A stretch of DNA of 54,829 bases, taken from positions 1 to 54,829 of the forward strand of contig CAZTQT010000005.1 in NCBI GenBank assembly GCA_964615625.1. The letters are read 5' to 3'. The stretch is from an uncultured Candidatus Saccharibacteria bacterium. GTDB taxonomy: Bacteria; Patescibacteriota; WWE3; UBA101185; UBA10185. The notes under the pieces are model-generated. The model was not told the DNA's origin. It saw nothing but the letters and a program-made list of their open reading frames with translations, and made no database searches. Positions 3,175 to 24,993 of the stretch are shown one piece after another (the first letter of the stretch is position 1; every line of letters begins with the position of its first letter). The translations under genes were made by a program, and so were the position numbers.

Positions 3175-3721
3175 AAACTAAGGTAGCTTGGTTGAGGTCT
3201 AAACCAACATCTAAAAATTTTTGCTCAAAATATGCTTTTACAACACCTAACTTTTGTCTATGCGTTAATGAATTTTCATCTTCAAAGATATCAAATATGG
3301 AATCTCTACTTACTTGTTTCATTAAAGCACCATTTTTGACTAGAGTGTCATTTAAAACTTTTCTGTTTTTGGCTAAACTTTGAATGGCTTGAAGTTTCAG
3401 TTGAGTAGTAACGGTTTTATCTGTAATAACGTTCCAAAGTTCTTGTTCAAGTTTATAAAAAGTTCTCGAAAACTCAGCAGAATGCCTCTCAATATCAGTT
3501 TCATTTAATTCTGATTTCCAGCCTTCACGTATTTCTTTAATCCAGTTGTAAACAGTTCTTGGAGTAACACCAAAGTGTTCAGATATTTCAGTTGCAATAT
3601 TTATATCCTTCCTAAAAGGATATCTAACTAACAAGTCTTCCAATGATATTAGAGCTTGTTGTTTCTTGAGTTCTGCAATAGAACCCCCTTGTTTTTTTGA
3701 AACCAATGAATCTGTCTTCAT
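3149..3721 (-). CDS. HTH DNA-binding protein
   Basis: 190 aa. IATEISEHFGVTPRTVYNWIKEIR is a classic HTH, followed by a helical region. Confidence 0.65.
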   Translation of the reverse strand: MKTDSLVSKKQGGSIAELKKQQALISLEDLLVRYPFRKDINIATEISEHFGVTPRTVYNWIKEIREGWKSELNETDIERHSAEFSRTFYKLEQELWNVITDKTVTTQLKLQAIQSLAKNRKVLNDTLVKNGALMKQVSRDSIFDIFEDENSLTHRQKLGVVKAYFEQKFLDVGLDLNQATLVYEGDLPNE

Positions 3722-4453: not shown

Positions 4454-4559
4454 TTTAATTTACTTGTTTATTATATCAGGAGTTTTTGATATTCAATACA
4501 AAAGGATATCTTAAAAAGAAATTGTGGTGGTTAATATTAAGAAATATAATAGTCTTAGC

Positions 4560-7500
4560 ATGACTAAACAGAATACACACGATGAAAGCATAGAAGAAAT
4601 TAAAACGCTGTATAAGAAATACTCTGCTGAAGATGTTTTTAGTGCACTTTTTGCGTCATCCCTCTGGCTCCCTAACAGCACTAGTTATATTCAACACCAA
4701 CTATTTGTAGCTACAGCTCTGGCGCTAAAACAATCAGCATATCAAGAAAAGAACAAAATCAATGAATATAATAAGCTTAAGGAATTCCTTGAAAAACTGT
4801 ATGCGCTAACATCCGGATATCCTACCTTTGAAGACTATATACCAACCTTGGATTGGGGAGAAGTCAAATTTCCATATGAAGATGAACAATACAAAATACT
4901 ATATGGCGGAGAATTGGACAATGCGTATGATTATATGACCCTTTTCAAAATACTTTACTGCAATATGGACGGACACTATCAGGAACAAGTGAAACGCAGT
5001 CCTACAAAGGAATTCGAAGGATTTCTAATACTACAAGATAGTTTGCTAAATAAAATAACCTCCCAAAAGAAACTCACTGAAGAGGTACCTGATATTGAAT
5101 TAATGCACACAGAAGTACCTACTGAGAAATTTTGGAAAGAGTGTATCTCTTTTATTAAAACTTCAGTTATTACCGAGCTATTTCCAGAAGAATCATTAGG
5201 TGAATTGACTATAAACATGGGCAATTTGAATGAAAAGAGTTTAACAGCTAAGAATTTCTTAAATAAGGTCGGGGACGGAAATCTTTTAAAACACCTATTT
5301 GTTCAGGTAGGTACTAAATACATACCAATTTTACCAAGAAGGGGACTAGCAGTATTACTTGATAGGTGGTCGAACTATTGTAAAAAGCTAGTATCAGAAG
5401 GGGAAACCTCTATAGAAAGGAACTATCAAAAGGAAATAACCATTGAACTTGCAAAATATCTACAGGGAAGACTAAATAAACGAGAACTATTTCCATTAAT
5501 TAGTGCCCAAAAAGATAATAGCGAGTCTCTAGATGAAGTTTTTGCTGCAGGCATTTCCACAGAAGAAACATTTATTGCTGTGTATGCCCTACCACCCGTA
5601 ACTGATAGGGAAAAATGCAAAGAATTTATTAGAAAATATGAAGCAGCTATTAAAGAATCAATAAATAACTTAAAAAGAACACCAGTAAAATTTGCATGGC
5701 ATTTGGAAAAAACAGGAATGCAAGCTCCCTATAACCATGAAAAAGTAGAAACTCTAATTGTAATACCACAAGCTACTACTAAAATGTTTGGAGTAGAGAG
5801 CTTTAAAAACTTAAATCCTCGAATAATGTTTTTAGAAGAGTTTTTAGCAATATTGGATGAGATAGAAAGTGCAGAAGATTTAGTAAAGTATTGGGACTAC
5901 TGCGATGATTTAGAAAAAAATAGTCAATTTGTCCCTATAACATCAAACCTTGATAAATTTGCATCCTATATAGATTCTCACGGTGTCCTTGTACCTGGGG
6001 CTAATACACCAAATATGATATTTATGGACCTATCTTGGGGAACCAATTATAGATACAAATCTCTTGCCAGCTTTTGGGAACTTTATCCCCAAGAAAGCTG
6101 GTATGGAAACCCTAGAGAGTGGAACGTTAAAAAAGAAAGGGAAAACAGCGTAAGAGTCACATCAAAAACTGAGAATATGCATTCAGCAATCTACCTTACA
6201 CTAGGTGATAAAAGGATTTTCATCTCTGCGCCATTTGAAAAGTTAGGATATAAAGAAGGCTCACTAGCTAACCTCTTTGTAGAGTGTGTGGGCGATTATT
6301 TTGCTAGATTCAGCGATTTACTAGAGCAACATAGTTTCTTCCAAGGTAGCGCAACTGTACATACACTTATATTTCCAAATAACCTTACAACATCAGAAGA
6401 TTTTAAGCACATAGTTCACTTGAAACCAGAACAGGATGAGCTATGGAAGCTAGATACTGGTTGGTTCCAACCAGGACGTTTTGGAATAAGAATTGTTTTT
6501 AACATAGAAAAAGTCCTAGAAATGTTTGAAGACATTTCAAGTAATGATATTGAAATTGAGTTGATTAAAGATATTGTAAATGCAATAAATGACAGAACAA
6601 CCAGAGAGGATATCAAAAAAATAACAGACGCAATAGAAAAATTAAGGGGCAATCCTGCCAGATTCAGAGCCTTTCATGCGGATAAAAATGCGGCATTCCC
6701 AGACTTTGTTAATACAATGACTCCTGGAATTCATGAGCATAAACTTGCACGTAAAAATATATCCTTTATTGCAAAAGAAGCAGGGTTAGAACAGGGGTTG
6801 TATGAAAAGGATGAGGCTAAAAAACTAATAGTAGACCTCAGAGCTAAAATATTAGAGCTTATTGAAAAAGAAGTGCAAAAATTTGATTGGGAAGACTCAA
6901 TTAGATTTCTAATAACTAGGACAGACGCCCTGGTACATAAATACGAAATGGCCAGAGCACATGCAAAAAATTCATTAGAGCAGGAGGTTGAATACAACCC
7001 AGAAGAACGCCATGCGGAAGCGCACAATGAGTTTGTATTAAACCACAAATGCTACAGATACTTGATAGAAAAATTTTTACAATTGAAACCAAAAGGTCCC
7101 AAAAAGATTGACAGTAAGGAATTTAAATATATGGCAAGCCTGGTGGACAAATTAATAGAAGTATATGCTGCCAGTGACCACTTATTTTATGGTATATACC
7201 CTGCAAAACTACGTGTTTCTTATGACTATGTAACTAGTGTTGAGTATCCTCAAGACATTGACGCAATGCAAAAAAGATACGGAGAAGAAGAATCACAAAT
7301 ACAGCTAGGAATAATAGGTAATAATCAAGATAAAGTAGAATCCCCTACACCATTCGAAGATTATCTAGATGACTTAGATAAAGCCTTTGCCAAAGACCTT
7401 GGTTTTTCTATAGCGGAATTACTAAGTATTCTTCAAATACTCTCTCAATGGGCATATTTTCAAGAAAAAGTAGTAGAGAAAGCTTACTATCAAACTAAGA

Positions 7501-8294
7501 AAGAGACCATTCAAAAAACATGTATGAAACACATCCCCAATTTGACTATAGAAAGCTTCAACAAAATAATTGACTTTCTTACTTTGGAACAGAATGATTT
7601 ACTTAAAGTAATTGGAGAAAATGAACTAGCAGCGGACTTACCTGTATGGGAACATGATTTACGGCCCTTCCGATACACAATAAGACCTCTAATAGAAATA
7701 GAAGACGACATTGTTTGGGGACCTTATTCAGCTTATAAAACACGTATTATATGGGAGAATGTGGCAATTTATAATAAGTTACCCGCAAATATGGATACCT
7801 ATGAAACTAAAAAAGTTATTGATAGAGAAAAGAAATTAATAGAAACAGCGTTAGAGATAAAAACCCTTGAAATCATTAAGAGACACACAAAATTTGCTGA
7901 TAGTATAAATTATTCTAGAGGTACCCATCCCCAAGAACTCGGGGACTACGATACTTTAGCCTACATAAAAGGAAAAAATGTACTACTTAATATTGAGTGT
8001 AAAGACCTATTACCTGTGTACAACTTAAAGAAGGCAAGTGAGCTTAAAGAAAAGATATTTGATGATACAAAGCCAAAGAAATATTTAAAAAGAGTAGAAA
8101 ATAGAGAGGAATATTTGAAGAATAATATCAATGCATTTAATGAAAAACTCGAATGGGATATAAAAAAAGACGCAAAAATAATTTCACTGTTTATTACCAG
8201 ACATAACTATTGGTGGACTAAATTTCCTCCTATAAGAACAAATGTTAAGTTTATGAGAATAGACTTACTTGAAGAATATCTAGAAAGCATTTAA
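4560..8294 (+). CDS. Large hypothetical protein with C-terminal PD-(D/E)xK-like nuclease motif; candidate defence protein
   Basis: Long uninterrupted ORF (track starts at 4524; ATG 4560 preferred, 1,244 aa). GDYDTLAYIKGKNVLLNIECKD fits D...ExK. Located in the island beside the R-M pair. Confidence 0.7.
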   Translation: MTKQNTHDESIEEIKTLYKKYSAEDVFSALFASSLWLPNSTSYIQHQLFVATALALKQSAYQEKNKINEYNKLKEFLEKLYALTSGYPTFEDYIPTLDWGEVKFPYEDEQYKILYGGELDNAYDYMTLFKILYCNMDGHYQEQVKRSPTKEFEGFLILQDSLLNKITSQKKLTEEVPDIELMHTEVPTEKFWKECISFIKTSVITELFPEESLGELTINMGNLNEKSLTAKNFLNKVGDGNLLKHLFVQVGTKYIPILPRRGLAVLLDRWSNYCKKLVSEGETSIERNYQKEITIELAKYLQGRLNKRELFPLISAQKDNSESLDEVFAAGISTEETFIAVYALPPVTDREKCKEFIRKYEAAIKESINNLKRTPVKFAWHLEKTGMQAPYNHEKVETLIVIPQATTKMFGVESFKNLNPRIMFLEEFLAILDEIESAEDLVKYWDYCDDLEKNSQFVPITSNLDKFASYIDSHGVLVPGANTPNMIFMDLSWGTNYRYKSLASFWELYPQESWYGNPREWNVKKERENSVRVTSKTENMHSAIYLTLGDKRIFISAPFEKLGYKEGSLANLFVECVGDYFARFSDLLEQHSFFQGSATVHTLIFPNNLTTSEDFKHIVHLKPEQDELWKLDTGWFQPGRFGIRIVFNIEKVLEMFEDISSNDIEIELIKDIVNAINDRTTREDIKKITDAIEKLRGNPARFRAFHADKNAAFPDFVNTMTPGIHEHKLARKNISFIAKEAGLEQGLYEKDEAKKLIVDLRAKILELIEKEVQKFDWEDSIRFLITRTDALVHKYEMARAHAKNSLEQEVEYNPEERHAEAHNEFVLNHKCYRYLIEKFLQLKPKGPKKIDSKEFKYMASLVDKLIEVYAASDHLFYGIYPAKLRVSYDYVTSVEYPQDIDAMQKRYGEEESQIQLGIIGNNQDKVESPTPFEDYLDDLDKAFAKDLGFSIAELLSILQILSQWAYFQEKVVEKAYYQTKKETIQKTCMKHIPNLTIESFNKIIDFLTLEQNDLLKVIGENELAADLPVWEHDLRPFRYTIRPLIEIEDDIVWGPYSAYKTRIIWENVAIYNKLPANMDTYETKKVIDREKKLIETALEIKTLEIIKRHTKFADSINYSRGTHPQELGDYDTLAYIKGKNVLLNIECKDLLPVYNLKKASELKEKIFDDTKPKKYLKRVENREEYLKNNINAFNEKLEWDIKKDAKIISLFITRHNYWWTKFPPIRTNVKFMRIDLLEEYLESI

Positions 8295-9157: not shown

Positions 9158-10249
9158 CTATTTGATAAATCTAATCTGTAAATTCAGATTAAATCTCAAA
9201 GAGTTGTCGGAATTATATACATTTCCAAACCCATACCTACTTGTAGAAGGAGTATCGAATTTTGTGTTATTGAACAGGTAATTCTCAAACTCATTCACAT
9301 TGTATATGTGATAACAGACCAGGTCACCGTCATCTTTCACTATTATGTAGCCTCCCGATGCCCAATAATCACCTTCCCAAGCTTTAGCAGGGGTCATCCC
9401 TAGTGCAACAGCAACCAGGAAACGTTTAATTTTATATACATACAATTTGTGCGTATCTGTATGAAAATTCAAAGGATTTTCCTGTTCCAAAAGGGCAACT
9501 AAATCCTTAACTGTAGAAGCTCTGCCAGAGTAGTAATAGAGCACCATATTTGAAATTATTTCGGGTAAACGTGAATCTATCATTCCTAAATTAAGGGTGA
9601 ATATCTCGTTACCTGTAGAAACAAACTCAAAATTATAACCTTGTTCGATTAAACTAGCTATTTTGTCTCTTATTCTTAAACTCTCGTCACCAACATCGTA
9701 ACCTACATCAGATGATTCTCTTACACTATGTTTTTCACTATTGAGATTGTATTCAAAATTTGTAGCATTCCCTGCATTAAGTAAAGTAGAAGCACCTCCC
9801 AATTGAGATTTAATACTAAAACCTAAAGTAGGAGTTAGTCCTGTTCTAAAATCATGAATTATTAAATTGATATCTTCTTTCTTATTTGAATTTGCCTTTA
9901 GTTTTTTTACATGAATAGTTTTCAAGAATTCCTCTACGTCTGCTACGCCAAATGTTCTGCCTTTTATAGCATCGCTTTTTATAGTTTTCAAAACCTTTTC
10001 TGCATTCATTTGGAAAGTATCGAAGGGTATTTCACCTAACACTTTTGAATTATCTCCATCAATAATTTTTACTAAACCTTCCCTTCTATACTCCAAATCT
10101 CTTTCTTCCTTCCTTAAAATACTAATAATCGGGTAATAAATGTCTTTAACTCGTTCCAGGTTTTCGTTTGCAGCATATAATTCACCAGCTCCTAATAGCT
10201 TTAAGAAAGTATAAATTTCACTCCATTCGCCTATATTACCTGTCATCAT
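9158..10249 (-). CDS. Type II restriction endonuclease, HpaII family
   Basis: N-terminus GNIGEWSEIYTFLKLL, GFSIKSQLGGASTLLNA, and C-terminal KFDTPSTSRYGFG...LNLQIRF. Overlaps the MTase gene by 14 nt. Confidence 0.85.
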   Translation of the reverse strand: MMTGNIGEWSEIYTFLKLLGAGELYAANENLERVKDIYYPIISILRKEERDLEYRREGLVKIIDGDNSKVLGEIPFDTFQMNAEKVLKTIKSDAIKGRTFGVADVEEFLKTIHVKKLKANSNKKEDINLIIHDFRTGLTPTLGFSIKSQLGGASTLLNAGNATNFEYNLNSEKHSVRESSDVGYDVGDESLRIRDKIASLIEQGYNFEFVSTGNEIFTLNLGMIDSRLPEIISNMVLYYYSGRASTVKDLVALLEQENPLNFHTDTHKLYVYKIKRFLVAVALGMTPAKAWEGDYWASGGYIIVKDDGDLVCYHIYNVNEFENYLFNNTKFDTPSTSRYGFGNVYNSDNSLRFNLNLQIRFIK

Positions 10250-11252
10250 AAAGTTTATCTCCTAAAATTTTTACTATTTCCTCTGCAGTGGCCTGTATTG
10301 CGGGTACAGCAACAGAATTGCCAAATTGTTTATATGCTTGTGCATCAGATACAGGTATCTTGAAAGAATCAGGAAATCCCTGCAACCTTGCCCATTCCCT
10401 AGGAGTCATCTTTCTAATTCCCTCTCTATTAACCTCACCCTTAATATTTGTTATTGGTACAAAATTTTCAAGTCTAGTATCTATAATCAAGTTTCTCTCC
10501 CTGCCCATACCCCCTACAACTACAGCATTAGCAATATCATCTAGGTCTTTTATTTCATAACCAAAACCATTACCTTTACTTTCATGCCTTTTCTTATGTT
10601 CTCTTAGGGACTCTAGATAAACATCAGATAGATAATACTTCACGGATACGGGTTCTTCCTCAACTATATCTTTAATGGAAACATTAATATTTCTTGGTTT
10701 AGGATACTCAAAAGAATCAATCCCCAGGTCCTTCCTAAAACCAATGATAAAAACTCTTTCTCTGTTTTGAGGAACACCATAATCCTTAGCGTTTACTATT
10801 TGGGGTTCTGGCACATAGTAATCCAGGTCTTCTCGCAATACGTTTAGAATTGTTTTTAGAGTCCTGCCTCTGTCATGATTGGTTAATCCTTTTACATTCT
10901 CTAGAAACACTACTTTAGGTCTCTTGTGTTTAATTATTCTAGCTACTTCAAAAAACAAAGTACCTCGAGTGTCTTCAAAACCCCCTCTTTTACCTGCAAT
11001 TGAGAAGGCTTGGCAAGGAAACCCCGCTAGCAAAATTTCATGGTCTGGAACATCTTGTTCCTTTATTTGTCTTATATCACCGAAGGGAGTTTCACCAAAA
11101 TTGGCATGGTAAGTCTGCTGACTATATTTATCCCATTCAGAGGACATTACTGATTCACCACCAACATTCTCAAAAGCCATTCTGATACCACCGATACCAG
11201 CAAAAAGGTCTATTACTCTGAATTTTTTAATGTCATTAACCATTATTTCCAT
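10236..11252 (-). CDS. DNA (cytosine-5) methyltransferase, cognate of the endonuclease
   Basis: DLFAGIGG (motif I), GFPCQ (IV), LENV (VI), QNRER (VIII), QFGNSV (X). Confidence 0.97.
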   Translation of the reverse strand: MEIMVNDIKKFRVIDLFAGIGGIRMAFENVGGESVMSSEWDKYSQQTYHANFGETPFGDIRQIKEQDVPDHEILLAGFPCQAFSIAGKRGGFEDTRGTLFFEVARIIKHKRPKVVFLENVKGLTNHDRGRTLKTILNVLREDLDYYVPEPQIVNAKDYGVPQNRERVFIIGFRKDLGIDSFEYPKPRNINVSIKDIVEEEPVSVKYYLSDVYLESLREHKKRHESKGNGFGYEIKDLDDIANAVVVGGMGRERNLIIDTRLENFVPITNIKGEVNREGIRKMTPREWARLQGFPDSFKIPVSDAQAYKQFGNSVAVPAIQATAEEIVKILGDKLYDDR

Positions 11253-11287: not shown

Positions 11288-11365
11288 TTAGACTAAACTA
11301 GGTATAGAAACTGTAGCAGGACAAGTCATAAAATAGTTACAAACTTCGTCCACTATGCTCGACCA
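11288..11365 (-). other. Detached C-terminal coding segment of the recombinase (rejoined on excision)
   Basis: Reads in frame from the shared TGG TCG core as WS-SIVDEVCNYFMTCPATVSIPSLV*. It has no start codon of its own. Confidence 0.6.
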
Positions 11366-11561
11366 ATGAATTTTGGCTACCGATGTAATTGGTAGACAAA
11401 ATTTATTAGTGGGTGGTAAGGAGTTAACCTAGGCTTTAGCCGTGGTTCCACTTTTGATGCTATAGTGCGGAGCACTATGGCTCAAATGCAAGCTTTGCTT
11501 TGTCCGCCCACCCCGACCAATGAATTTTGGCTACCGATGTAATTGGTAGACAAAATTTATT
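11360..11561 (+). repeat. 48-bp perfect direct repeat (11360-11407, 11514-11561) flanking a structured mini-element with an 18-bp tRNA-Pro 3' copy
   Basis: CGACCAATGAATTTTGGCTACCGATGTAATTGGTAGACAAAATTTATT occurs twice and is itself a hairpin. GTCCGCCCACCCCGACCA at 11502-11519 equals 173-190. Confidence 0.95.
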
Positions 11562-11569
11562 TAACAACA

Positions 11570-12117: not shown

Positions 12118-13287
12118 ATGGAGAATAATCAAACTTCATCAAATATTAGCAACATAGTAGAATCTAACAACCAATTTGCTTTAGATTATTATTTTCAATT
12201 AAAAAATAAGGAAAGTGGAAACGTTTTTTTATCTCCTTTCAGTATTTATAGTATTTTAGCTATGGCTTATGAAGGAGCAAGAGGGCAGACAGCTGAGGAA
12301 ATGAGATCATTACTGCACCTTCCAACAGATGATAGTTTAAGAAGATCTGAGTATGCAACAACAGTTGAAGGTTTAAACAACGATGATAAAAAATATAAAA
12401 TCAGTATTGCTAACGCACTTTGGGCTCAACAAGATTATAAGTTTCTAGATGAATATCTTAATATAGTAGAAAATTTTTATGGTGGAAAAGCCAATAACCT
12501 TGATTTCAAAAAAGACCCGGAAGGCTCTAGAACAACTATAAATAACTGGATAGAAGAACAAACAAACGACAAAATCAAGGATTTAATACCTTTTGGGATA
12601 ATTGATGGATCAACAAGACTTATACTTACAAACGCAATTTATTTTAAAGGTGAATGGGTAAGACAATTCAATGCAGAAGAAACAAGAAATGAAAATTTTA
12701 GAATAAATGCAAACGAATCTATTGATGTCCAAATGATGAGACGTGTTGATGAGGATGCTAAATTTAATTACACCGAAAACGATGATTTACAGATTCTTGA
12801 AATGCCTTATTCAGGCGAAGAACTATCTATGCTAATCCTTCTTCCGAAAAATGATGATCTAGAAACATTAGAAAATTTACTCAGTACAAAAAAACTATCA
12901 GAGTGGAAACAAAATCTAGAAAACCAGCATGTTGTGGTATCTATTCCAAAATTCAAATTTGAGACTAAATACTTTATGGCTAAAGATCTTAAAGCAATGG
13001 GAGTACCTACAGCGTTTGATTGGCCAGGAGCTAATTTTTCTGGAATGGACGGTGCGGAGGAGTTGTTTATCGGAGAGGTTATTCACCAAGCACTTGTTGA
13101 GGTAACTGAAGAAGGAACCGAAGCGGCAGCGGCAACTACAGTAGTTTCATTGAAGGGATCTATGAGAAGTAATAATACCCATACAATCCCTGTTTTCCGT
13201 GCGAATCATCCCTTTATATTTCTAATTCAAGAAAAAACTAATGGGAATATTTTATTTATGGGAAGGGTTGTTAACCCAACCCTATAA
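12118..13287 (+). CDS. Serpin-family protease inhibitor
   Basis: NVFLSPFSI, NAIYFKGEW, hinge EEGTEAAAAT, FRANHPFIFLI, ILFMGRV. GAGGGG RBS. Confidence 0.95.
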   Translation: MENNQTSSNISNIVESNNQFALDYYFQLKNKESGNVFLSPFSIYSILAMAYEGARGQTAEEMRSLLHLPTDDSLRRSEYATTVEGLNNDDKKYKISIANALWAQQDYKFLDEYLNIVENFYGGKANNLDFKKDPEGSRTTINNWIEEQTNDKIKDLIPFGIIDGSTRLILTNAIYFKGEWVRQFNAEETRNENFRINANESIDVQMMRRVDEDAKFNYTENDDLQILEMPYSGEELSMLILLPKNDDLETLENLLSTKKLSEWKQNLENQHVVVSIPKFKFETKYFMAKDLKAMGVPTAFDWPGANFSGMDGAEELFIGEVIHQALVEVTEEGTEAAAATTVVSLKGSMRSNNTHTIPVFRANHPFIFLIQEKTNGNILFMGRVVNPTL

Positions 13288-15946: not shown

Positions 15947-15960
15947 GACGCTAACGGGAG

Positions 15961-16155
15961 TTTGCTGGTGGGCGAGAGAGGACTCGGTCACAAGTCCACG
16001 TATCTCTACGTCACTCCGTTCCTAGAGCTTCGTGGCTCGCGACCCCCTCTCGCTCGCCTTCGGCTCACTGCGAATTATTCTCGTCCTCTCTCATAAGCGA
16101 AAAATATATCGGCATAAAGCCGACACATTTTTGCTGGTGGGCGAGAGAGGACTCG
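15961..16155 (-). repeat. 26-bp direct repeat of the tRNA-Leu 3' end enclosing a 143-bp structured mini-element
   Basis: TTTGCTGGTGGGCGAGAGAGGACTCG at 15961-15986 and 16130-16155. Confidence 0.92.
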
Positions 16156-16217
16156 AACCTCCACCCTTGCGGACACGGTCCTAAGCCGTGCGCGTATGCC
16201 AATTCCGCCACTCGCCC
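16135..16217 (-). tRNA. tRNA-Leu(TAG)
   Basis: 83 nt: acceptor GGGCGAG/CTCGCCC, anticodon arm CACGG-CTTAGGA-CCGTG, long variable arm, encoded CCA. Confidence 0.97.
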
Positions 16218-16360
16218 TTAAACTTCAACTTTTGAGTAACTTAGATTATATACTAACTGAGAAAATGATAAAAATTTCACAAACAACTTACCAAATCCTT
16301 ATACATAAATATTCAAACTATCTCAGCAAAAACTCAGAAAACTATATATAATTGTGCCCA

Positions 16361-17052
16361 ATGAGAATACTGATTGTAGAAGATGAACATAAAATCGCCG
16401 ATTCTATAAAACAAGGTCTTGAACAAGAAAATTTTGCTGTTGACGTTTCATATGACGGATCAGATGGTTATGACATGGCGTTATCTGAAGAATATGATTT
16501 GATAATCCTTGATCTCATGTTACCAAAAATGAACGGGCTTGAAATATGCGAAAAATTGAGAGCAGAAAATAACCACACACCAATACTAATGCTTACCGCT
16601 CTAAATGAAATTGAAGATAAGGTAAGTGGTTTGACAAGTGGGGCAGACGATTATCTGACAAAACCTTTTGCTTTTACTGAACTTCTTGCACGTATCCGAG
16701 CTCTTCTTAGGAGACCAAAGATTATGTTACCGGATGAGATAGTGTGCGGCGATCTTTATATAAATACTAAAAACTTTAAGGTTACACGAGCAGGAAAAGA
16801 TATTAACCTCTCCAAAAAAGAATTTTCCCTTCTTGAGTACTTAGCAAGAAACAAAAATAAGATTGTTACAAAGGATCAAATTATAAGTCATGTTTGGGAT
16901 TATGATTCCGATGTACTTCCAAATACAGTGGAGGTATACATTGGTTATCTAAGAAATAAAATCGATGCTCCCTTTAAGGGAAAAACAAGTTTATAAATAC
17001 TGTTAGAGGATTCGGGTACATATTTAAATATGAGGAGAAAAATAGTGTTTAA
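16361..17052 (+). pseudogene. OmpR-family response regulator, frameshifted near the C-terminus
   Basis: MRILIVEDE...DLIILDLMLP...DDYLTKPF receiver and winged-helix domain. The zero frame stops at 16996 and the conserved TVRGFGY is in the -1 frame, ending at 17052. Confidence 0.8.
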
Positions 17053-17098
17053 ATCAGCAAGAATAAAATTAACTACATACTATCTATTTTCATTATGA
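17030..17098 (+). pseudogene. N-terminal remnant of the cognate sensor kinase
   Basis: MRRKIVFKSARIKLTTYYLFSL* overlaps the regulator end and resembles the basic lead-in to a sensor kinase first TM helix. No kinase domain follows. Confidence 0.5.
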
Positions 17099-17193
17099 AT
17101 ATTGAACAATTGTTGAAAATCGAAAATGATCAAATAATTTTATAAAACAGCCCTCTTCACACACAATCACCAAAAATGTTTTAAAATAACCTT

Positions 17194-18195
17194 ATGGGAA
17201 TAGAGCATATACCAAATACCAACAATGATAATGAATTCCCTTTTCCTTATTTACCTAGTAGAGATACAGAAACAAACGAAGAGAAAATTATAGGTACTGG
17301 GTGGGAATCACAAGTAAAAATGTTAGGACCAGATTGGGTTCTAAAAGAAGTAAACCCATTTACATCTTGGGGTGAAGAAAGATCACAAGAAATGATCAAT
17401 TATCTTAGAAACCCTGAAAGAGTTAGGGCTATCATGGATGATCAAGATAAAATTAGCAAAATATTTGGGGAGGAACACTTTGCTAGATCATATTTTATTT
17501 ATGGAAAAGATCAAAATGGAAAAGAGGGTTACATATTAGTACAAAAATTTATCCCAGGAAAAGCCTTATCAGAAATGATAGGGGTCGATTACAAAAATAC
17601 CGATGAAATGATAAATGAAAATAGAGAACAATTTAAAGATATTGTATGGGGTCTGAAAAAATCGTTTATTGAATTTGGTGTTCCTGTAGATTTTCACCCT
17701 GGAAATTTAATAAAAAATGAAAAGACGGGGAAAATAGTAATCATGGATACAGGCATCCCATCACGAGAATTTAGGACTGTTATGAGCGACGAACGTACAG
17801 AAAAAGCTTTTAATATTTTTGAAAATGCGTACAAAAGATTAGATAGGATGAGTAGATACGAAAGGCTGCTCAAACTAACTGAAGAGGAAAAGCTAGAACT
17901 AGATAATAAATACGATATAACTGACAAGCAATATAACGACCGCTTAGAAAATCTTAACAATATGAAAAACGAAAAAGGTTTTGAAATTAGTGTTGTTAAC
18001 CCTGTAGATAAACTTTTAAATAATATTTTTGGCGGAAGAGACAAGATCGATGGACAAGAATTATTAGACTATGCTTTTAAAACACTAGGTGAAAGAAAAC
18101 CAACTGAAAGTCAGGAAATTATTTTGGATAAATTAAGGGAACAAAGCACTGTTTTAGGAAATAAGGCCTATTGGAAGAATATCATTGAATTATAA
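17194..18195 (+). CDS. Protein-kinase-like fold protein
   Basis: IGTGWES (Gly loop), VLKEV (Lys), LVQKFIPG (hinge), DFHPGN (catalytic loop), IMDTG (DFG equivalent). Confidence 0.7.
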   Translation: MGIEHIPNTNNDNEFPFPYLPSRDTETNEEKIIGTGWESQVKMLGPDWVLKEVNPFTSWGEERSQEMINYLRNPERVRAIMDDQDKISKIFGEEHFARSYFIYGKDQNGKEGYILVQKFIPGKALSEMIGVDYKNTDEMINENREQFKDIVWGLKKSFIEFGVPVDFHPGNLIKNEKTGKIVIMDTGIPSREFRTVMSDERTEKAFNIFENAYKRLDRMSRYERLLKLTEEEKLELDNKYDITDKQYNDRLENLNNMKNEKGFEISVVNPVDKLLNNIFGGRDKIDGQELLDYAFKTLGERKPTESQEIILDKLREQSTVLGNKAYWKNIIEL

Positions 18196-18281
18196 GCAAC
18201 TCTCAATACTAAAATATAATGAAAAATTATATCGTACCTTTAGGGTTTGTATAAGGTATTTACTCGTGTAATAATTTTTAT

Positions 18282-19328
18282 ATGGTTGAAAACCCCTTTT
18301 TACATTACGAGGATACACATGCGGAGACACTTGATAAAATGGATATTGAATCAAAAAACCACACTACTCTTTTTGGGGCAATGGGCAAAGAGAAATATTT
18401 ATCATTTGCTTACGGTGAAGGTTTAAAAAGCAATCCAAAATTGCAAGAAGAATTATCCAAAAACGGCTTCACAGATGCAAAATATTCAATCGGAACATTT
18501 AACAATGAGAGAGGGGAGGAAGAAACCTCACTATTTATTTCACTTGAATTACCTAGCAACAATATCATATATGAATGTGATGTTAATAGTAAAAAAATGT
18601 GGCCATTTGATATGTACGAGGCTAAACATATCTACATTTTAGGAAAAAACGGTGAGGCTACAGATTTAATGGAGGAGCTTAGACCAACTGAAACTAAATT
18701 AATGATATGTCCAAATAAAAGGTTTCCCTTTGCTGGAGCATCTTTCAAAGAAAATATGATTGTCCTGCCTGATCTAAGAAAATTTTCAATTAAAAATCTT
18801 GGAGATGAAATAATGGATTTCCCTGTCATACTGCATGAGATAGGACACATAAAGCACCGGAAAGTAGAGCCAAATATTTTTAATGAGAGAGCACAAGCGG
18901 TAATGAATCTAACTTCCTTAATTGGTCTAGATAGATCCAAAATTGAAAAATTAAAAGGTACTCTCTTTGATAAATTGGCATGTTTTATTGAAGAACGCGC
19001 TCCAATTCTTTTAAGACAAGAGGAAATCGCATCATCTTGGGCATGTAAATGGATTGAGAAAAACAAAGAGCAAGGATTTAATTTTTGGAAAAGTATTACA
19101 GAAAATTACTGGGAACAGCTTGATATAGCACTTGCGACCTATAAAAATTTCTGGACAACAGTAGAAAATAAAGCCTGGTCTTTTGAAAACGATAGTGCTG
19201 ATAAATACATTTTTGAAAATTTAGTAAAACAATGGCAAGAACAATACCCACACCTTAACATTAAAGTAAATTCTGAAATCCCAAATACAATTAATGAAGA
19301 AAATAAAGATATTTCCCCTCTTTTGTAA
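18282..19328 (+). CDS. Hypothetical protein with HExxH zinc-metallopeptidase-like motif
   Basis: VILHEIGH plus a downstream EEIA helix. Confidence 0.6.
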   Translation: MVENPFLHYEDTHAETLDKMDIESKNHTTLFGAMGKEKYLSFAYGEGLKSNPKLQEELSKNGFTDAKYSIGTFNNERGEEETSLFISLELPSNNIIYECDVNSKKMWPFDMYEAKHIYILGKNGEATDLMEELRPTETKLMICPNKRFPFAGASFKENMIVLPDLRKFSIKNLGDEIMDFPVILHEIGHIKHRKVEPNIFNERAQAVMNLTSLIGLDRSKIEKLKGTLFDKLACFIEERAPILLRQEEIASSWACKWIEKNKEQGFNFWKSITENYWEQLDIALATYKNFWTTVENKAWSFENDSADKYIFENLVKQWQEQYPHLNIKVNSEIPNTINEENKDISPLL

Positions 19329-19427
19329 AATCTCTAGCTTTCTCTAATGACTTTTTAAATTCTTGCAAAAATTTTGAAGAAATTATTTAAACTTAACACA
19401 TTGCCTTGTGCTAGAATACCAACGAAT

Positions 19428-20615
19428 ATGAAAAAGCAAGAAAAGAAAAAAAGAATATATATGGACTATGCCGCTACAACACCTGTAGATAAAAAGGTTG
19501 TTAAAGCTATGCTTCCTTACTTTACGGAAAAGTATGGTAACACATCATCAATCCACACAATGGGAACAATTGCCAATACAGCTGTAAACAGAGTTAGAGA
19601 AGAAATTGCCAATTATATAAGCTGTCAAATAAACGAGGTTTATTTCACATCCTCAGCTACAGAAAGTAACAACTGGGCTCTAAAATGTGTAGCGTCTGCA
19701 AATAAAGACAAGGGGGACAAAATAATAATTTCATCTATAGAGCATGATTGTGTTTTAAATAGCGCAGAATGGTTATCAAAAAATGGCTTTAATGTAGAAC
19801 ATGCTCCTGTTGATGAGTTTGGATCAGTTAAGTTAGATGAATTAGAAAAAATGATGACTAAAGACACTATTTTGGTCTCTGTAATGCATTCAAACAATGA
19901 AATTGGAACAATACAACCAATAGAAGAGATAGGGAAAATATGCAAAAAGAAAGGGATATTGTTCCATACAGATGCGTCCCAAAGTTTTGGAAAGATGCCT
20001 ATAAATGTACAAAAACTAAATATAGATTTATTAACGGCTTCATCACATAAAATATATGGTCCTAAGGGTGTCGGCCTTCTTTATATAAAAAACGGCGTAA
20101 AAATAGATACTTTTATCCACGGTGGGGGGCATGAAAGAGGCAAAAGATCATCAACAGTTAATGTTCCTGCAATTGTTGGGTTTGGAAAAGCTTTAGAAAT
20201 CTGCATAAAAGAAATGTACGATGAAAAACTCAGACTCACAAATTTAAGGGATAAAATAATAAAAAGTGTTCTGAAAAATATCCCAGACTCCCATCTAAAT
20301 GGACATTCTACAAAAAGACTACCCAACAACATAGACATGAGATTTGATTTTATAGAAGGGGAGGCCCTGATGATGGAGTTGGACATGAACGGAATAGAAG
20401 TTTCTACAGTGTCGGCATGCTCATCCCCAAAATTACAGGCATCACATGTACTTTTATCCTGCGGTGTTGAGGAAAAATATGCCCAAGGAACAATAAGGAT
20501 AACATTAGGTAGATACACAAAAGAAAGTGAAGTAAAATATTTATTGGAGGTTTTACCAAAAGCCGTTCAAAAGCTTAGGAAAATATCTCCCATGAATATA
20601 CATAATTCAGAATAA
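19428..20615 (+). CDS. iscS: Cysteine desulfurase (IscS/NifS)
   Basis: YMDYAATTP, HTDASQ, SSHKIYGPKG (PLP Lys), SACSS (catalytic Cys). ATG 19428 preferred. Confidence 0.95.
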   Translation: MKKQEKKKRIYMDYAATTPVDKKVVKAMLPYFTEKYGNTSSIHTMGTIANTAVNRVREEIANYISCQINEVYFTSSATESNNWALKCVASANKDKGDKIIISSIEHDCVLNSAEWLSKNGFNVEHAPVDEFGSVKLDELEKMMTKDTILVSVMHSNNEIGTIQPIEEIGKICKKKGILFHTDASQSFGKMPINVQKLNIDLLTASSHKIYGPKGVGLLYIKNGVKIDTFIHGGGHERGKRSSTVNVPAIVGFGKALEICIKEMYDEKLRLTNLRDKIIKSVLKNIPDSHLNGHSTKRLPNNIDMRFDFIEGEALMMELDMNGIEVSTVSACSSPKLQASHVLLSCGVEEKYAQGTIRITLGRYTKESEVKYLLEVLPKAVQKLRKISPMNIHNSE

Positions 20616-20617
20616 AA

Positions 20618-21100
20618 ATGTATACAAAAAAAGTTTTAGATTACTTTAAAAAACCAAAAAACTTAGGAAAAATAAAAAACGCTGATGGTGTTGGAAAAGT
20701 TGGTAACATGGCCTGCGGAGATGTAATGCATCTCTATATAAAAGTAAAAGAAGAAAAAGGAAAAGAAATTATATCGGACATAAAATTCCAAACTTTTGGT
20801 TGTGTTGCGGCTATTGCAACAAGTAGTGCTGTAACAGAAATGGTAAAAGGAAAAACATTTGAGGAAGCATTAAAAGTTGGTAAAGGAGACATCATAGATT
20901 CTTTAGATGGGTTACCTCCAATTAAAATACACTGTTCTGTTCTTGCTACGGAAGCCCTAGCCGAAGCAATTTATGATTATTTGAGCAAAAATAACAAACC
21001 CATACCAGAAATCCTTGAAAAACAACATGAAAAAACAGTTAAAGAAAACGAGATGCTTGAAGAGAGGTACGAGGAATGGACAGAAAATCAGCAAGATTAA
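20618..21100 (+). CDS. iscU: Fe-S scaffold IscU/NifU-N
   Basis: GNMACGD, FGCVAAIA, KIHCS: three conserved Cys. Confidence 0.93.
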   Translation: MYTKKVLDYFKKPKNLGKIKNADGVGKVGNMACGDVMHLYIKVKEEKGKEIISDIKFQTFGCVAAIATSSAVTEMVKGKTFEEALKVGKGDIIDSLDGLPPIKIHCSVLATEALAEAIYDYLSKNNKPIPEILEKQHEKTVKENEMLEERYEEWTENQQD

Positions 21101-22140
21101 AAAACAAAAAAGTAGTTGTAGGTGTATCTGGAGGAGTTGATTCTACCGCCGCGTTAATTCTTCTACAAAAAAGGGGTTACACACCTGTCGGGATTTCTCT
21201 TAAACTTCCAAAATGGCATGGTGATAACAACAATTCAATAAAAAAGGCAGAGGAAATATGTAAAATCCTTAAATGCGAGCACCGTGTTTTAGATATAGAA
21301 AAAGACTTTCAATCAAATGTGGTGGATTATTTTGTTAAAACTTTAACATCAGGAAAAACTCCGAATCCATGCATGGTATGCAATAAAAACACAAAGTTTT
21401 TTCACCTTTTTAAATTCGCTGATGAAAACAATATAAAACACGTTTCAACAGGACATTACGCAAAAATTACAAAAAGTAGAAAACACAAATCTTTTTTCAT
21501 AACTCAACCAAAAGATAAAAATAAAGATCAAACTTATTATTTAAGTCTCCTACCTCAAGAATGGTTAGAAAGAATCATTTTCCCGTTAGGGGAAGTGGTT
21601 AAAGATGATGTTTATAAAATAACTAAAAAAGCAGGATTCCATTTTGAAAACATTTCTCAAAGCCAAGATTTCTGTTATATACCAGATGAATCAATTGATA
21701 GCTTTATTGAAAAAGAAATAAAAGTCAAAGAAGGGCAAATAATTGATAGCGAAAGAAAGGTTATAGGAAAACACAGAGGATTAGAGTATTACACAATAGG
21801 GCAGAGAAAAAAGATAGGATTAGCAGGAGGGCCTTATTACGTTACTAAAAAAGACGTTGGAACAAATAATTTGTTTGTCTCAAAAGATAAAAAAGATTTA
21901 GGAAAAACAGATATATACCTTTCTGATGTCTTTTTTGCAAATAATAAAATGTACGGTAAAAAACTTAAAGTAAAAGCAAAAATAAGATACCAACACAACC
22001 TCGCTCAAGCTATGATATCCCCAACAGAGGGTAGGGAATACCTAATAAAATTTGCAAAACCACAACTAGCAATAACTCCAGGTCAATATTGTGTTTTTTA
22101 TATTAATAAAATGTGTGTAGGATCTGGGATTATTAAGTAA
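21076..22140 (+). CDS. mnmA: tRNA 2-thiouridylase
   Basis: SGGVDS PP-loop, TPNPCMVCN, TGHYA, DQTYYL, SQDFC, ITPGQ. Confidence 0.95.
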   Translation: MDRKSARLKNKKVVVGVSGGVDSTAALILLQKRGYTPVGISLKLPKWHGDNNNSIKKAEEICKILKCEHRVLDIEKDFQSNVVDYFVKTLTSGKTPNPCMVCNKNTKFFHLFKFADENNIKHVSTGHYAKITKSRKHKSFFITQPKDKNKDQTYYLSLLPQEWLERIIFPLGEVVKDDVYKITKKAGFHFENISQSQDFCYIPDESIDSFIEKEIKVKEGQIIDSERKVIGKHRGLEYYTIGQRKKIGLAGGPYYVTKKDVGTNNLFVSKDKKDLGKTDIYLSDVFFANNKMYGKKLKVKAKIRYQHNLAQAMISPTEGREYLIKFAKPQLAITPGQYCVFYINKMCVGSGIIK

Positions 22141-22165
22141 CTCCGTGTGATACAATAACCACATT

Positions 22166-23119
22166 ATGCAAACAAAAATAGAAAAACAACCAAAATCAAC
22201 AATAAAAATGACCGTTGTTATAGAAAACAGCGCAGTTAAAGATTTTTATGAAAAAGAAGTTTCTCATGCTGTAGAATATGTAGAAATACAAGGTTTCAGA
22301 AAGGGAACAGCCCCAAAAGAAATGGTAATAGAAAAAGTTGGTAATTCCAGACTGTATGGAGATACAATAAACAGTCTTTTACAACACTATTACCCACAAG
22401 CTTTAAAGGAAAACCATCTTAACCCGATATCTAACCCAAAAGTGGACATAAAGGAGTTTGATATATCAAAAGACCTCGAGTTCACAGCAGAATTTGCAGT
22501 TAGACCAGAGGTTAAAATTGGAGATTATAAAAAGGCCTTGAAAGATTATTACAAGGAAAAAACAGAAAAACTTGAAGCTGCTAAATTAGAAAAATCAAAA
22601 GAAGAAGGGGATGATAAAAAAGAAGAACAAGAACACGACCACCATCACGATCATGTCCATATTGGTTCAAATGAAGTTATAGATATCCTTATAAAAGAAA
22701 CAAAAACTGAAGTTTCCGATATTTTGTTAGAAGAAGAAACAGACAGAATGATGACAAGATTGGTAGAACAACTGGAAACTATAAAATTGCCATTAGATAA
22801 ATATCTTGAAGCTCAAGGAAAAACTGCAGAAGAGTTAAGAAAAGAATATAACGATATGTCAGAAAAAAATATTAAGGCCGAGCTTGTTATGGCCCATTTA
22901 ATAGAGGTTGAGAAAATTGAGACTACGGATGAAGAAATAGACGAAATGATATCTGCAATAGGAGATCCTACATTAGGAGAAAAATTAGAAGATCCTGTAC
23001 AAAGACTTTATATCAAAAACATTCTTCAAAAAAATAAACTTTTAACCAAATTAATAGAAGAAGTGGAAGGACCAAACTTCCACGGTAATCACGAACATAA
23101 GGAGAAAAAAGATGAATAA
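22166..23119 (+). CDS. tig: Trigger factor lacking the FKBP/PPIase domain
   Basis: GFRKGTAP ribosome-binding motif, N-domain, charged His-rich linker, C-domain; 317 aa. Confidence 0.9.
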   Translation: MQTKIEKQPKSTIKMTVVIENSAVKDFYEKEVSHAVEYVEIQGFRKGTAPKEMVIEKVGNSRLYGDTINSLLQHYYPQALKENHLNPISNPKVDIKEFDISKDLEFTAEFAVRPEVKIGDYKKALKDYYKEKTEKLEAAKLEKSKEEGDDKKEEQEHDHHHDHVHIGSNEVIDILIKETKTEVSDILLEEETDRMMTRLVEQLETIKLPLDKYLEAQGKTAEELRKEYNDMSEKNIKAELVMAHLIEVEKIETTDEEIDEMISAIGDPTLGEKLEDPVQRLYIKNILQKNKLLTKLIEEVEGPNFHGNHEHKEKKDE

Positions 23120-23708
23120 CACATTAGTTCCAATAGTAATAGAAAAAGATCAAGGAGGGATGGAAAGATCCTATGATATATATTCCAGACTTCTTAAAGA
23201 TTTTATAGTTTTTGTTACAGGACCAATAGATATGGGGGTGGCAAATACTTTTATTGCACAACTACTTTTTCTTGAAAGTGTAAATCCTGATAAAGACATA
23301 AGTGTTTACATTAATTCCCCTGGAGGCGAGGTATATGCTGGAATCGCAATGTACGACACTATAAAACACATAAAAAATGACGTGGTTACAATAAATGTGG
23401 GACTCTCAGCTTCAGCTGGGGCTTTAATACTTTCGGCCGGGACAAAAGGTAAAAGATATGCTTTGCCAGGATCTCACACAATGATTCACCAAGTTATAGG
23501 TGGGGTAGAGGGGCAGGCAAGTGATGTTGAAATAACAGCAAAACACATGTTAAGACTTAGAGATCAATATGCTGAAGCTATATCAAAAGAAACGGGTCAA
23601 AAATTAGACAAAGTTAAAGGGGATATGGATAGAGATTACTGGATGGACGCAAACGAATCTGTAAAATATGGAATAATAGATAAAATAATGAATCCAAAGA
23701 AAAAATAG
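23112..23708 (+). CDS. clpP: ATP-dependent Clp protease proteolytic subunit
   Basis: DIYSRLL, YINSPGG, SASAG (Ser), MIHQ (His), DRDYWM (Asp). Confidence 0.97.
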   Translation: MNNTLVPIVIEKDQGGMERSYDIYSRLLKDFIVFVTGPIDMGVANTFIAQLLFLESVNPDKDISVYINSPGGEVYAGIAMYDTIKHIKNDVVTINVGLSASAGALILSAGTKGKRYALPGSHTMIHQVIGGVEGQASDVEITAKHMLRLRDQYAEAISKETGQKLDKVKGDMDRDYWMDANESVKYGIIDKIMNPKKK

Positions 23709-23773
23709 GGTAAAATACCTTCTGTTTATTAATAAAACTAGACTTGGTGGTTTGAAAAATAAAATAATACTTC

Positions 23774-23850
23774 GGGCGGTTAGCTCAGCCGGTTAGAGCG
23801 CCACATTGACATTGTGGAGGTCATAGGTTCGATCCCTGTACCGCCCACCA
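23774..23850 (+). tRNA. tRNA-Val(GAC)
   Basis: 77 nt: acceptor GGGCGGT/ACCGCCC, anticodon arm CCACA-TTGACAT-TGTGG, GGTTCGATCC, encoded CCA. Confidence 0.97.
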
Positions 23851-23902
23851 AAACAACTAAACTAGATTTACGAAAATTTCCAAATAAAAAGATAAAGTAT
23901 CT

Positions 23903-24164
23903 AGGCTGTTAGCTCCTGTTGGAGCGAAGCGACAACCGATCCTAACCAACCTAAAGAATATAGAAATATATTTAAATGAGCCAGTGGCGAATAAGTAGTA
24001 AGAAAATAAAACAAGCAAAAGTACAGAAGAGTTAGGAGAGTCGGTTAGAGCGCCACATTGACATTGTGGAGGTCATTGGTTCGCAAAATTCCTGCATCGC
24101 TACGCGATGTAAAAGGAAGCGCAGCGAGTGAAACGAGCGAGCAAGCTTTTATTACCGCCCACCA
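23903..24164 (+). pseudogene. Second tRNA-Val copy in three pieces, split by 126-nt and 70-nt insertions
   Basis: 23904-23915 matches 23775-23786 at 11/12, 24042-24083 matches 23790-23831 at 41/42, and 24154-24164 matches 23840-23850 at 11/11. Confidence 0.8.
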
Positions 24165-24213
24165 AAAACCTACCATCACTTCAACAAACCTAAAAATCAT
24201 CTATAATAAAATT

Positions 24214-24993
24214 ATGCTAAATGACCTTCAGAAAAAATACCTAGAACTCACAAAATTTGGACCATATCCCTCACCATATTTTTTCCACATCAGAAAAGGC
24301 GGTCAAATAATGTATTACTTAGGATTTGACCATACCTACGACGCAAAAGACTTATCTTGGGGTGTTCTTGATAATTACATGCAAGATTTTATAGATAAAA
24401 CTGACGGTAAAAAACGAATGGTTTTAGTGGAAGGTGGGGAGAAGATACTAGCCTCCGGAAGAAGGGACCAGATAAAAGCAATGGGAGAAGCTTATTACAC
24501 ATGGTACTTAGCTCAATCCTCAGCAATTCCTGTTATATACCCAGAGCCGGCAATCAATGACCAGTTAAAATTCCTTTCAGAAAAATTTCCAAAGGATGTG
24601 ATAATAACAAGCATTTTTGTAGAACAACTGTGCATAAGAAGTAACTACATAAAACCTGACAATATAGAAAGCTCTCTTTTATCTTACTTAGATTACGTTA
24701 AAAATGCTGTTAAATGGGAAGATGGAGTTTTTGACATAAAAAATATATTTGAATGTTATAAAAAAATATCTGGGATAGAACTTGATTACAACAATCTTGA
24801 ATACATAAGAAAAGAAACTGACCCTTATTTAGAAATTAACACTATCAATGAAGTTATTAACACAAAATCACAGTTTAAAGATAAAATAACATTGAAAAAT
24901 ACAAAAGATTTATGGGACAAAGGGTACAATATACTTGCTGTTTTTGGTAAAAGCCACGCTATAATGCATGAGATATCCATAAAAGAGTGGTAA
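24214..24993 (+). CDS. Hypothetical protein
   Basis: Open frame from ATG 24214. The track's upstream extension merely overlies the split tRNA copy. Confidence 0.7.
   Translation: MLNDLQKKYLELTKFGPYPSPYFFHIRKGGQIMYYLGFDHTYDAKDLSWGVLDNYMQDFIDKTDGKKRMVLVEGGEKILASGRRDQIKAMGEAYYTWYLAQSSAIPVIYPEPAINDQLKFLSEKFPKDVIITSIFVEQLCIRSNYIKPDNIESSLLSYLDYVKNAVKWEDGVFDIKNIFECYKKISGIELDYNNLEYIRKETDPYLEINTINEVINTKSQFKDKITLKNTKDLWDKGYNILAVFGKSHAIMHEISIKEW

Follow-up and report, generated by a model that had tools for sequence, protein, structure and literature searches.

Escherichia coli carries tRNA-linked repeats (TLRs), present in 22 copies at ten loci, whose 3' end is identical over 18-19 bp to that of the upstream tRNA or rRNA (PMC8144298). 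They have been known since 1978, with no function or origin established (PMC8144298). Units of a similar build are found in an uncultured Candidatus Saccharibacteria bacterium of the Patescibacteria. The window analyzed is the whole of its contig CAZTQT010000005.1 (assembly GCA_964615625.1), a stretch of 54,829 nucleotides that is contig C5 of a 725-kb genome with 30 contigs, 33% G+C and 94% completeness. ARAGORN places three tRNA genes in the window: tRNA-Pro(tgg) at 115-190, tRNA-Leu(tag) on the minus strand and tRNA-Val(gac) on the plus strand (Table 1). An earlier, sequence-only reading described "inserts" associated with the Leu and Val genes and, within them, four copies of a GA-bracketed micro-motif. 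These inserts proved to be tRNA-linked repeats that each close with a copy of the 3' end of their tRNA, a larger structure that had been missed. The four motifs are hairpin tips of these modular repeats and not free-standing signals.

With moderate confidence, the elements are read as short (about 60-170 nt), non-coding, modular tRNA-linked repeats that carry GA-hairpin tips. Confidence is higher for the identification as TLR-like and lower for the functional steps. The data establish the architecture of the units, a covarying fold on the sense strand, a multi-copy and patchy occurrence, presence or absence unit by unit, and a likeness in build to TLRs and the Rfam family RtT. Like the TLRs, the units follow a tRNA directly, in the same orientation, occur in multiple copies, and end in 18-21 nt that exactly match the 3' end of the gene before them (21 nt at Leu; at Val the identity is 12 nt). 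They differ in host, here a 0.7 Mb Patescibacteria genome, and in density, which is far higher: 16 of the 38 tRNAs carry an end copy. Searches of a library of papers found no description of such elements in Patescibacteria.

Architecture of the tRNA-linked units

The genome yields 38 tRNA genes for examination; a 39th ARAGORN call, which wraps around the end of a contig, was excluded. For sixteen of the 38, the last 12-21 nt of the gene are repeated without change 38-302 nt downstream, and all 16 copies extend to the CCA. Thirteen of them are 18-21 nt long and begin within the T-loop, between C56 and about position 59. The other three, at Gly, Pro-cgg and Val-gac, are 12 nt long and begin in the 3' strand of the acceptor stem. 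The DNA that lies between a tRNA and its end copy belongs to a few repeat families.

The element behind tRNA-Leu represents family 1. It consists of a spacer, an "anti" segment, a core with two helices (P2 and P3) and the tRNA-end copy. The anti segment and the copy are the two strands of a closing stem, P1, that encloses the core. A core with 98% identity over 107 nt is found behind tRNA-Asp at the end of another contig. There the anti segment and the 21-nt copy match tRNA-Asp and not tRNA-Leu, and the spacers differ too. In all, the family-1 core lies behind nine different tRNAs of this genome, each time with a matching stem. Closing stem P1 is thus rewritten for each tRNA. At two tRNAs the anti segment would form A-U where the real T-stem has G.U; it is therefore a complement of the tRNA 3' strand and not a remnant of the 5' strands.

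The Val "insert" is a second, decayed copy of tRNA-Val with two modules, the first at the D-loop position and the second in the T-loop. The second of these is a family-2 core. Family 2 has 10 copies in this genome, and 78 units were collected from metagenomes. At the tRNA-Ile locus the family-2 core sits exactly between G57 and A58, and no letter of the T-loop is lost. In one metagenome contig from another run, 13 other letters replace 24084-24157, the region of the family-2 core. Metagenome contigs also show tandem joints of 55 and 98 nt, at which the sequence goes back on itself within the Val element (24092-24146 and 23912-24009); the copy number of the modules thus varies between strains. 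An open reading frame (ORF) listed at 24058-24993 overlaps the 3' part of the Val element.

A conserved three-helix fold

An exact-pattern scan for family-1 units, with one genome per species, returned 70 loci with 73 units, and nearly all of the loci are in classes of Patescibacteria. The few loci labelled as other phyla include some GC-rich chance matches and some short contigs, possibly mis-binned. A sense tRNA lies just upstream of 55 of the 73 units, and 39 of these 55 end in an exact copy of its 3' end.

The three-helix fold was evaluated with 59 distinct sequences. Paired cells make up 88.6% of the total versus 72.6% in shuffles (none of 500 reaches the observed value), and controls in which the fold was slid along the alignment give 35-43%. 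The covariation score is 0.449 as compared with 0.160 in shuffles. Double changes occur at 8 of the 10 P1 pairs, at both distal P2 pairs and at 6 of the 13 P3 pairs. When P1 is examined in fixed register, 36 of the 59 units pair at least 8 of 10 positions with the end of their own tRNA, versus 23% with the ends of other units. When the anti segment was tested for a helix in any register, own and foreign ends were not told apart (33 of 66 with the own end versus 36% of cross pairs). The fold z-scores, among them those of the Leu core (-4.87) and of the Val D-loop-position module (-3.29), are -4.87, -2.41 and -3.29 on the sense strand versus -3.43, -1.09 and -0.83 on the other. The covariation supports a fold on the tRNA-sense strand.

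In this fold the Leu element is modelled as a three-way junction. No unpaired letters separate P3 from P1, and P3 is predicted to stack directly on P1. P2 has a conserved N-GA/GA internal loop at its base, present in all nine family-1 copies of this genome, and an exchangeable tip. A self-cleaving ribozyme was also considered, by eye only: the junction letters are unlike the hammerhead core, and Rfam gives no ribozyme match; no dedicated test was made.

Comparison with the E. coli repeats

The E. coli units used for comparison are rtT/RttR of the tyrT operon (Rfam RF00391) and RrA/B/F, which follow 5S rRNA. The RtT consensus aligns with the Leu element over its whole length. The order is the same: a run of U, the anti stem, GAGAA, about 83 nt, and then the tRNA-Tyr 3' end. 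The anti segment is thus a feature of the RtT consensus as well, and at the tyrT locus of E. coli K-12 every unit has an anti stem and an 18-19 nt tRNA-end copy. Both kinds of core are purine-rich and contain GA-bracketed 2-bp hairpins; the string GA-GC-GAA-GC-GA itself occurs in the E. coli tyrT-tyrV spacer. Some of the units described here lie between two terminator-like hairpins, as is stated for rrnB in PMC8144298. There are also differences. Neither in sequence nor in fold do the cores show a detectable relationship. The copy starts at C56 in these units and at A58 or A59 in E. coli, and the units here include D-loop-side and T-loop-internal modules.

Direct searches gave the following results. 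At the Rfam gathering score the only matches in the window are the three tRNAs. At the level of E-values a weak RtT match on the Leu element is added, along with chance matches to microRNA and plastid families. RtT has no match in 20 other tRNA-flank loci, and a family-1 unit compared by blastn with all complete E. coli genomes gave none either.

Several points weigh against reading the elements as TLR-like repeats of the kind outlined above. First, the likeness to TLR/RtT may be convergent: RF00391 scores 19.2 bits on the Leu element against a cut-off of 45 bits (E 0.11-0.23), and in the other direction model R1, built for the family-1 core, scores 8.9 bits on E. coli tyrT (E 2), which is no detectable homology. 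Second, the search pattern of the scan fixed part of P2 and P3, so that the invariance there arises by construction; the single P2 base pair that the pattern left free is C-G or U-A in 70 of the 73 units. Third, the outer part of P1 has A-C mismatches about as often as G-U pairs, so P1 alone does not tell the strand. Fourth, transcription, processing and an RNA role of the units are proposed by analogy. Fifth, the reading leaves unexplained how a matching anti segment and tRNA-end copy are acquired at a new tRNA. Gene conversion between old units could give near-identical cores with no new insertion, and a search of the genome for transposases (Y1, the TnpB-type zinc-ribbon domain, IS110 and Cas1) found none.

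Gain, loss and possible origin

The units are patchily distributed. Among 151 genomes sampled from the phylum, model R1 matches 8, which have 1-10 copies each; the present genome has nine. A 95%-complete congener assembled in 4 contigs has no 3'-end copy within 420 nt at any of 42 tRNAs examined. The orthologous tRNA-Leu(tag) site is empty in five congeners and filled in two, with a different spacer and different tips.

An empty allele was also found for the Leu element itself. A 2548-nt contig from an independent activated-sludge run joins 15960 to 16130, skips exactly 169 nt and is otherwise identical to the window. The junction has 26 letters that are common to both sides. Such a precise empty site with shared letters is compatible with loss by recombination between direct repeats. 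The units come and go as a whole, as sense-strand structured, modular and tRNA-addressed repeats. The tRNA-end copy often extends 1-8 nt beyond the end of the tRNA, and at three tRNA-Ser loci the CCA position is not the same in gene and copy. Together these points suggest copying of DNA and not of mature tRNA.

Candidate enzymes were sought among the genes of the carriers. The recombinases found in this genome are two Xer-like tyrosine recombinases and one large serine recombinase. It has no autonomous long element with family-1 ends, and a search for the tRNA-splicing endonuclease found none. Reverse transcriptase genes are present in 6 of the 8 carrier genomes versus 50 of the 143 non-carriers. 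As a required driver, reverse transcriptase was ruled out, since two complete carriers, with 9 and 10 copies, lack it. The reverse transcriptase of the present genome is a 466-aa ORF on another contig (C12, locus L013, 1033-3331) that directly adjoins an ORF resembling a type I restriction specificity subunit. It looks like a defence-type pairing and not like a retroelement tied to the repeats.

How the units might function can be proposed by analogy with the E. coli units as presented in PMC8144298. The units would be read-through transcripts of the tRNA operon. P1 together with the copied tRNA tail would create a tRNA-like 3' end that could be processed and would be stable. At the DNA level, the direct repeat would allow precise loss of a unit. 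The 21-nt copy might double as a homology arm by which a fragment containing tRNA plus unit converts a naive tRNA allele, and the palindromic T-loop might be the means of the strand switches by which the two P1 arms are written. The GA-hairpin tips would be compact and very stable caps rather than a specific protein address.

A more ambitious proposal, put forward tentatively and doubtful as it stands, is that the units form a "self-addressed" class spanning the phylum. It could have a core built as a three-way junction, with both strands of the closing stem written from the T-arm and 3' end of the host tRNA. The class would be either a new kind of mobile element, one that has no enzyme of its own or is driven by host enzymes, or a mimic of the tRNA tail that taps the machinery of 3'-end maturation and repair. 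Template switching could bring the mobile version in at the palindromic T-loop, and recombination through the tRNA homology arm could carry it from cell to cell. If true, either version would also explain the TLRs of E. coli. The TLR build is found here in a minimal Patescibacteria genome at a density far above that of E. coli. Four features open the TLR question to tests: the core is conserved, the fold covaries, the closing stem is specific to each tRNA, and natural populations have both filled and empty alleles.

A second possibility is a role of the hairpins in single-stranded DNA, where they would be handles for a hairpin-recognizing transposase or for template switching during replication; the units would then be mobile miniature DNA elements similar to the repetitive extragenic palindromic (REP) or IS200-type elements. 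This is unlikely. C-GNA-G triloops dominate the tips (CGAAG 11 times, CGTAG 5 times), and Hirao and colleagues reportedly found these to be extra stable in DNA. The extension of the copies past the tRNA end and the CCA differences at the tRNA-Ser loci are as expected of DNA copies, both junctions lie in the palindromic T-loop, and unit-wise insertions and deletions do occur. Against this stand the failure to find Y1 (HUH), TnpB-type, IS110 or Cas1 genes in the genome and the two complete carriers that lack reverse transcriptase. Furthermore, the wobble pairs and the better folding of the sense strand fit RNA as well. Miniature inverted-repeat transposable elements and REP-like elements differ from the present units, in which the inverted segment is derived from the target and differs with each tRNA, and for which no matching transposase was found. 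Hairpins of the d(GCGAAGC) type and helices of tandem sheared G.A pairs have been defined on synthetic DNA oligomers. The units share with the GNA mini-hairpins the C-GNA-G closing, the Py-GA-Pu contexts and self-pairing (NNGA)n strings. Unlike those hairpins, the motif sits here in a larger, covarying fold on the strand that would be transcribed.

A third explanation, quite unlikely, treats each tRNA-end copy as an attachment site (attR/attL) left by an element that entered at the T-loop, with its decayed remains in between. The T-loop is said to be a classic sublocation for integration into tRNA genes, as reported by Williams in 2002, and the identity block here likewise spans the T-loop to the tRNA 3' end as a direct repeat. 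The window even has a real case at tRNA-Pro, where a serine recombinase gene adjoins the tRNA and 15 nt of the tRNA end recur at a distance of 11.3 kb. On another contig, two copies of the tRNA-Gln end enclose a 290-aa ORF. On the other hand, a single conserved and covarying core lies behind nine different tRNAs, each with its matching stem, while only the three recombinases listed above were found. The same fold recurs across the phylum. Recombination at att sites does not leave an inverted segment derived from the target, as is seen here. The DNA between the direct repeats (148 nt at Leu, 302 nt at Val) contains no gene of a known mobility family; neither cargo nor integrase lies between them, unlike in att sites, and one core serves many tRNAs. 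Only the separate tRNA-Pro island shows the build expected of an att scar.

GA-ladder tips

The four strings noted in the sequence-only reading, GA-GCC-GAA-GGC-GA in the Leu element and GA-GC-GAA-GC-GA, GA-GCC-AGT-GGC-GA and GA-GT-GAA-AC-GA in the Val element, are all present, each on the strand of its own tRNA (Table 1). A GA-ladder tip is built of Watson-Crick steps, 2-3 pairs long, that lie between tandem G.A/A.G positions, and it has a GNA-type triloop as its cap. The caps are mostly of the C-GNA-G type counted above. The tips of P2 and P3 are exchangeable, and each can be a plain hairpin or a GA-ladder, for example ((..((...))..)) and longer forms.

The compensatory changes claimed for the stems are real. 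In the D-loop-side module the inner stem is GC/GC, GC/GT, GT/GC or AC/GT in different copies. In one congener of the 7-copy alignment AT/AT replaces the bracketing GA/GA; the bracketing GA positions thus behave as positions of a helix. The 78 Val-type units from metagenomes have 45 distinct tips, of which 12 are GA-bracketed. The inner stems of these 12 are GT/AC (5), AC/GT (3), AT/AT (2), GC/GC (1) and one stem of 3 bp. Among the 33 non-GA tips, 25 are a plain helix of at least 4 bp. The P2 tips of the Leu type are likewise a mixture of GA-type and plain hairpins. These data support a structural cap and argue against a fixed protein address.

The sequence-only reading had suggested a protein-recognition signal and had pointed to kink-turns. 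A recurrent, tRNA-linked hairpin in the sense orientation with compensatory changes was borne out. A dedicated signal was not, since the GA tips are often replaced and no L7Ae-family gene was found. That the hairpins are kink-turns recognized by a specific RNA-binding protein is very doubtful. The pattern CGC-AGY-GA...GA-GCG does fit two copies, the P2 of the Leu core and the second hairpin of the Val family-2 core. Both have the elements of a Kt-7-type kink-turn: a C-stem, a 3-nt bulge, tandem G.A/A.G pairs, and a short stem with a loop. The N-GA/GA loop at the base of P2, constant in the nine family-1 copies, also agrees with it. In many homologues, though, ordinary hairpins substitute for the GA tips, and the pattern is not conserved. 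The bulge of most family-1 units is 1 nt long and not 3 nt. The proposed C-stem is lost in Val-type variants, for example in four units with a U...AC flank. The L7Ae family (PF01248) has no match in the 94%-complete genome, whereas it was detected in 7 control genomes.

The motif was also counted genome-wide, as the sequence-only reading had proposed. The pattern GA-stem-GAA-stem-GA (stem of 2-3 bp, G-T allowed) was searched on both strands of the 725 kb and compared with 100 dinucleotide shuffles. It occurs 42 times, versus 24.4 +/- 4.9 in the shuffles with a maximum of 36; the 42 matches are copies of a few repeat families and not independent events. Eighteen of the 42 lie at most 350 nt from a tRNA, a region that makes up 3.4% of the bases, so the motif is concentrated near tRNAs and withstands the refuting condition set in the sequence-only reading. 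The view that a short, low-complexity string merely recurs by chance in spacers rich in purines was rejected. With no more than 7 fixed letters, the motif is expected in 24 copies from composition, yet 16 of the 18 matches near a tRNA are in its sense, compensatory changes are present, and 3381 nt of distinct variable tips from other genomes contain the strict micro-motif 12 times versus 0.075 expected, an excess of more than 100-fold.

Feature coordinates and neighboring loci

Table 1. Features of the Leu and Val elements, in the order in which they follow each tRNA
Feature	Position	Strand	Support or remark
tRNA-Leu(tag), intact, CCA encoded	16135..16217	-	ARAGORN; Rfam tRNA 55.2 bits
Spacer with terminator-like hairpin	16093..16134	-	hairpin stem 16109-16123; in the 169-nt block absent from the empty allele
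Anti segment, 5' strand of closing stem P1	16083..16092	-	perfect complement of tRNA-Leu positions 59-68
Family-1 core: junction GAGAAU, then P2 and P3	15987..16082	-	model R1 59.4 bits, E 1.4e-15; fold z -4.87
P2 of Leu core, CGC-AGU-GA-GCC-GAA-GGC-GA-GCG	16051..16072	-	GA string at 16054-16066
P3 tip of Leu core, GA-AC-GGA-GU-GA	about 16010..16022	-	
Exact 21-nt copy of tRNA-Leu 3' end (T-loop C56 to CCA), 3' strand of P1	15966..15986	-	
tRNA-Val(gac), intact	23774..23850	+	ARAGORN; Rfam
Degenerate tRNA 5'-end copy (acceptor 5' strand and D-stem 5' strand)	23904..23915	+	starts the second, interrupted tRNA-Val copy
D-loop-position module, ends pair together	23916..24041	+	7-copy alignment, compensatory changes; fold z -3.29
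Hairpin GUUG-GA-GC-GAA-GC-GA-CAAC of D-loop-position module	23918..23936	+	GA string at 23922-23932
Hairpin GA-GCC-AGU-GGC-GA of D-loop-position module	23978..23990	+	GA string over the whole hairpin
tRNA-Val body copy, D-arm to T-loop G57	24042..24083	+	
Family-2 core (69 nt), in T-loop of second tRNA-Val copy	24084..24152	+	
First hairpin of Val family-2 core	about 24095..24111	+	
Second hairpin of Val family-2 core, CGC-AGC-GA-GU-GAA-AC-GA-GCG	24120..24141	+	GA string at 24126-24136
12-nt copy of tRNA-Val 3' end (acceptor 3' strand and CCA)	24153..24164	+	

The units have practical consequences for genome projects. They break assemblies, and they create tRNA fragments that confuse tRNA annotation. 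The window itself starts inside an inverted family-2 core upstream of tRNA-Pro (positions 1-15). Contigs end in repeats elsewhere too: at the end of C4, the start of C13, the end of C17 and the start of C20.

The region at tRNA-Pro resembles an integrated island with a length of about 11 kb. The gene at 92-1813 on the minus strand encodes a large serine recombinase of 573 aa, with Resolvase, Recombinase and zinc-ribbon domains, and overlaps tRNA-Pro(tgg), which lies on the opposite strand. The 15-nt copy of the tRNA-Pro 3' end is at 11504-11519. Within the island an HpaII-type restriction endonuclease adjoins a C-5 cytosine methylase (9158-11252, minus strand). The island also has a helix-turn-helix or terminase-like ORF at 3149-3721 and a 1256-aa ORF at 4524-8294 that has no Pfam family. 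A direct repeat of about 46 nt, consisting of CCA and a hairpin-forming stretch, is found at 11361-11407 and 11517-11562. It flanks a unit of about 110 nt that ends in the tRNA-Pro 3' copy and appears to be a further tRNA-linked unit, separated from its tRNA by the island.

The 290-aa ORF mentioned above is on contig C11 (locus L147, 9337-10246), between the second and third copies of the tRNA-Gln 3' end. It has no Pfam family and looks like a gene-sized insert bounded by tRNA-end copies.

Two unusual tRNAs were called by ARAGORN. One, in a congener (G012, locus L055, 1666-1743), has the anticodon UUA and would read UAA. The other is a "tRNA-Tyr(ata)" on contig C22 of the present genome (2788-2862). 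Both may be suppressor-like or mis-called. Finally, the window contains a full-length serpin gene at 12118-13287 on the plus strand (Pfam Serpin, E 1.4e-120), in a genome of 0.7 Mb.

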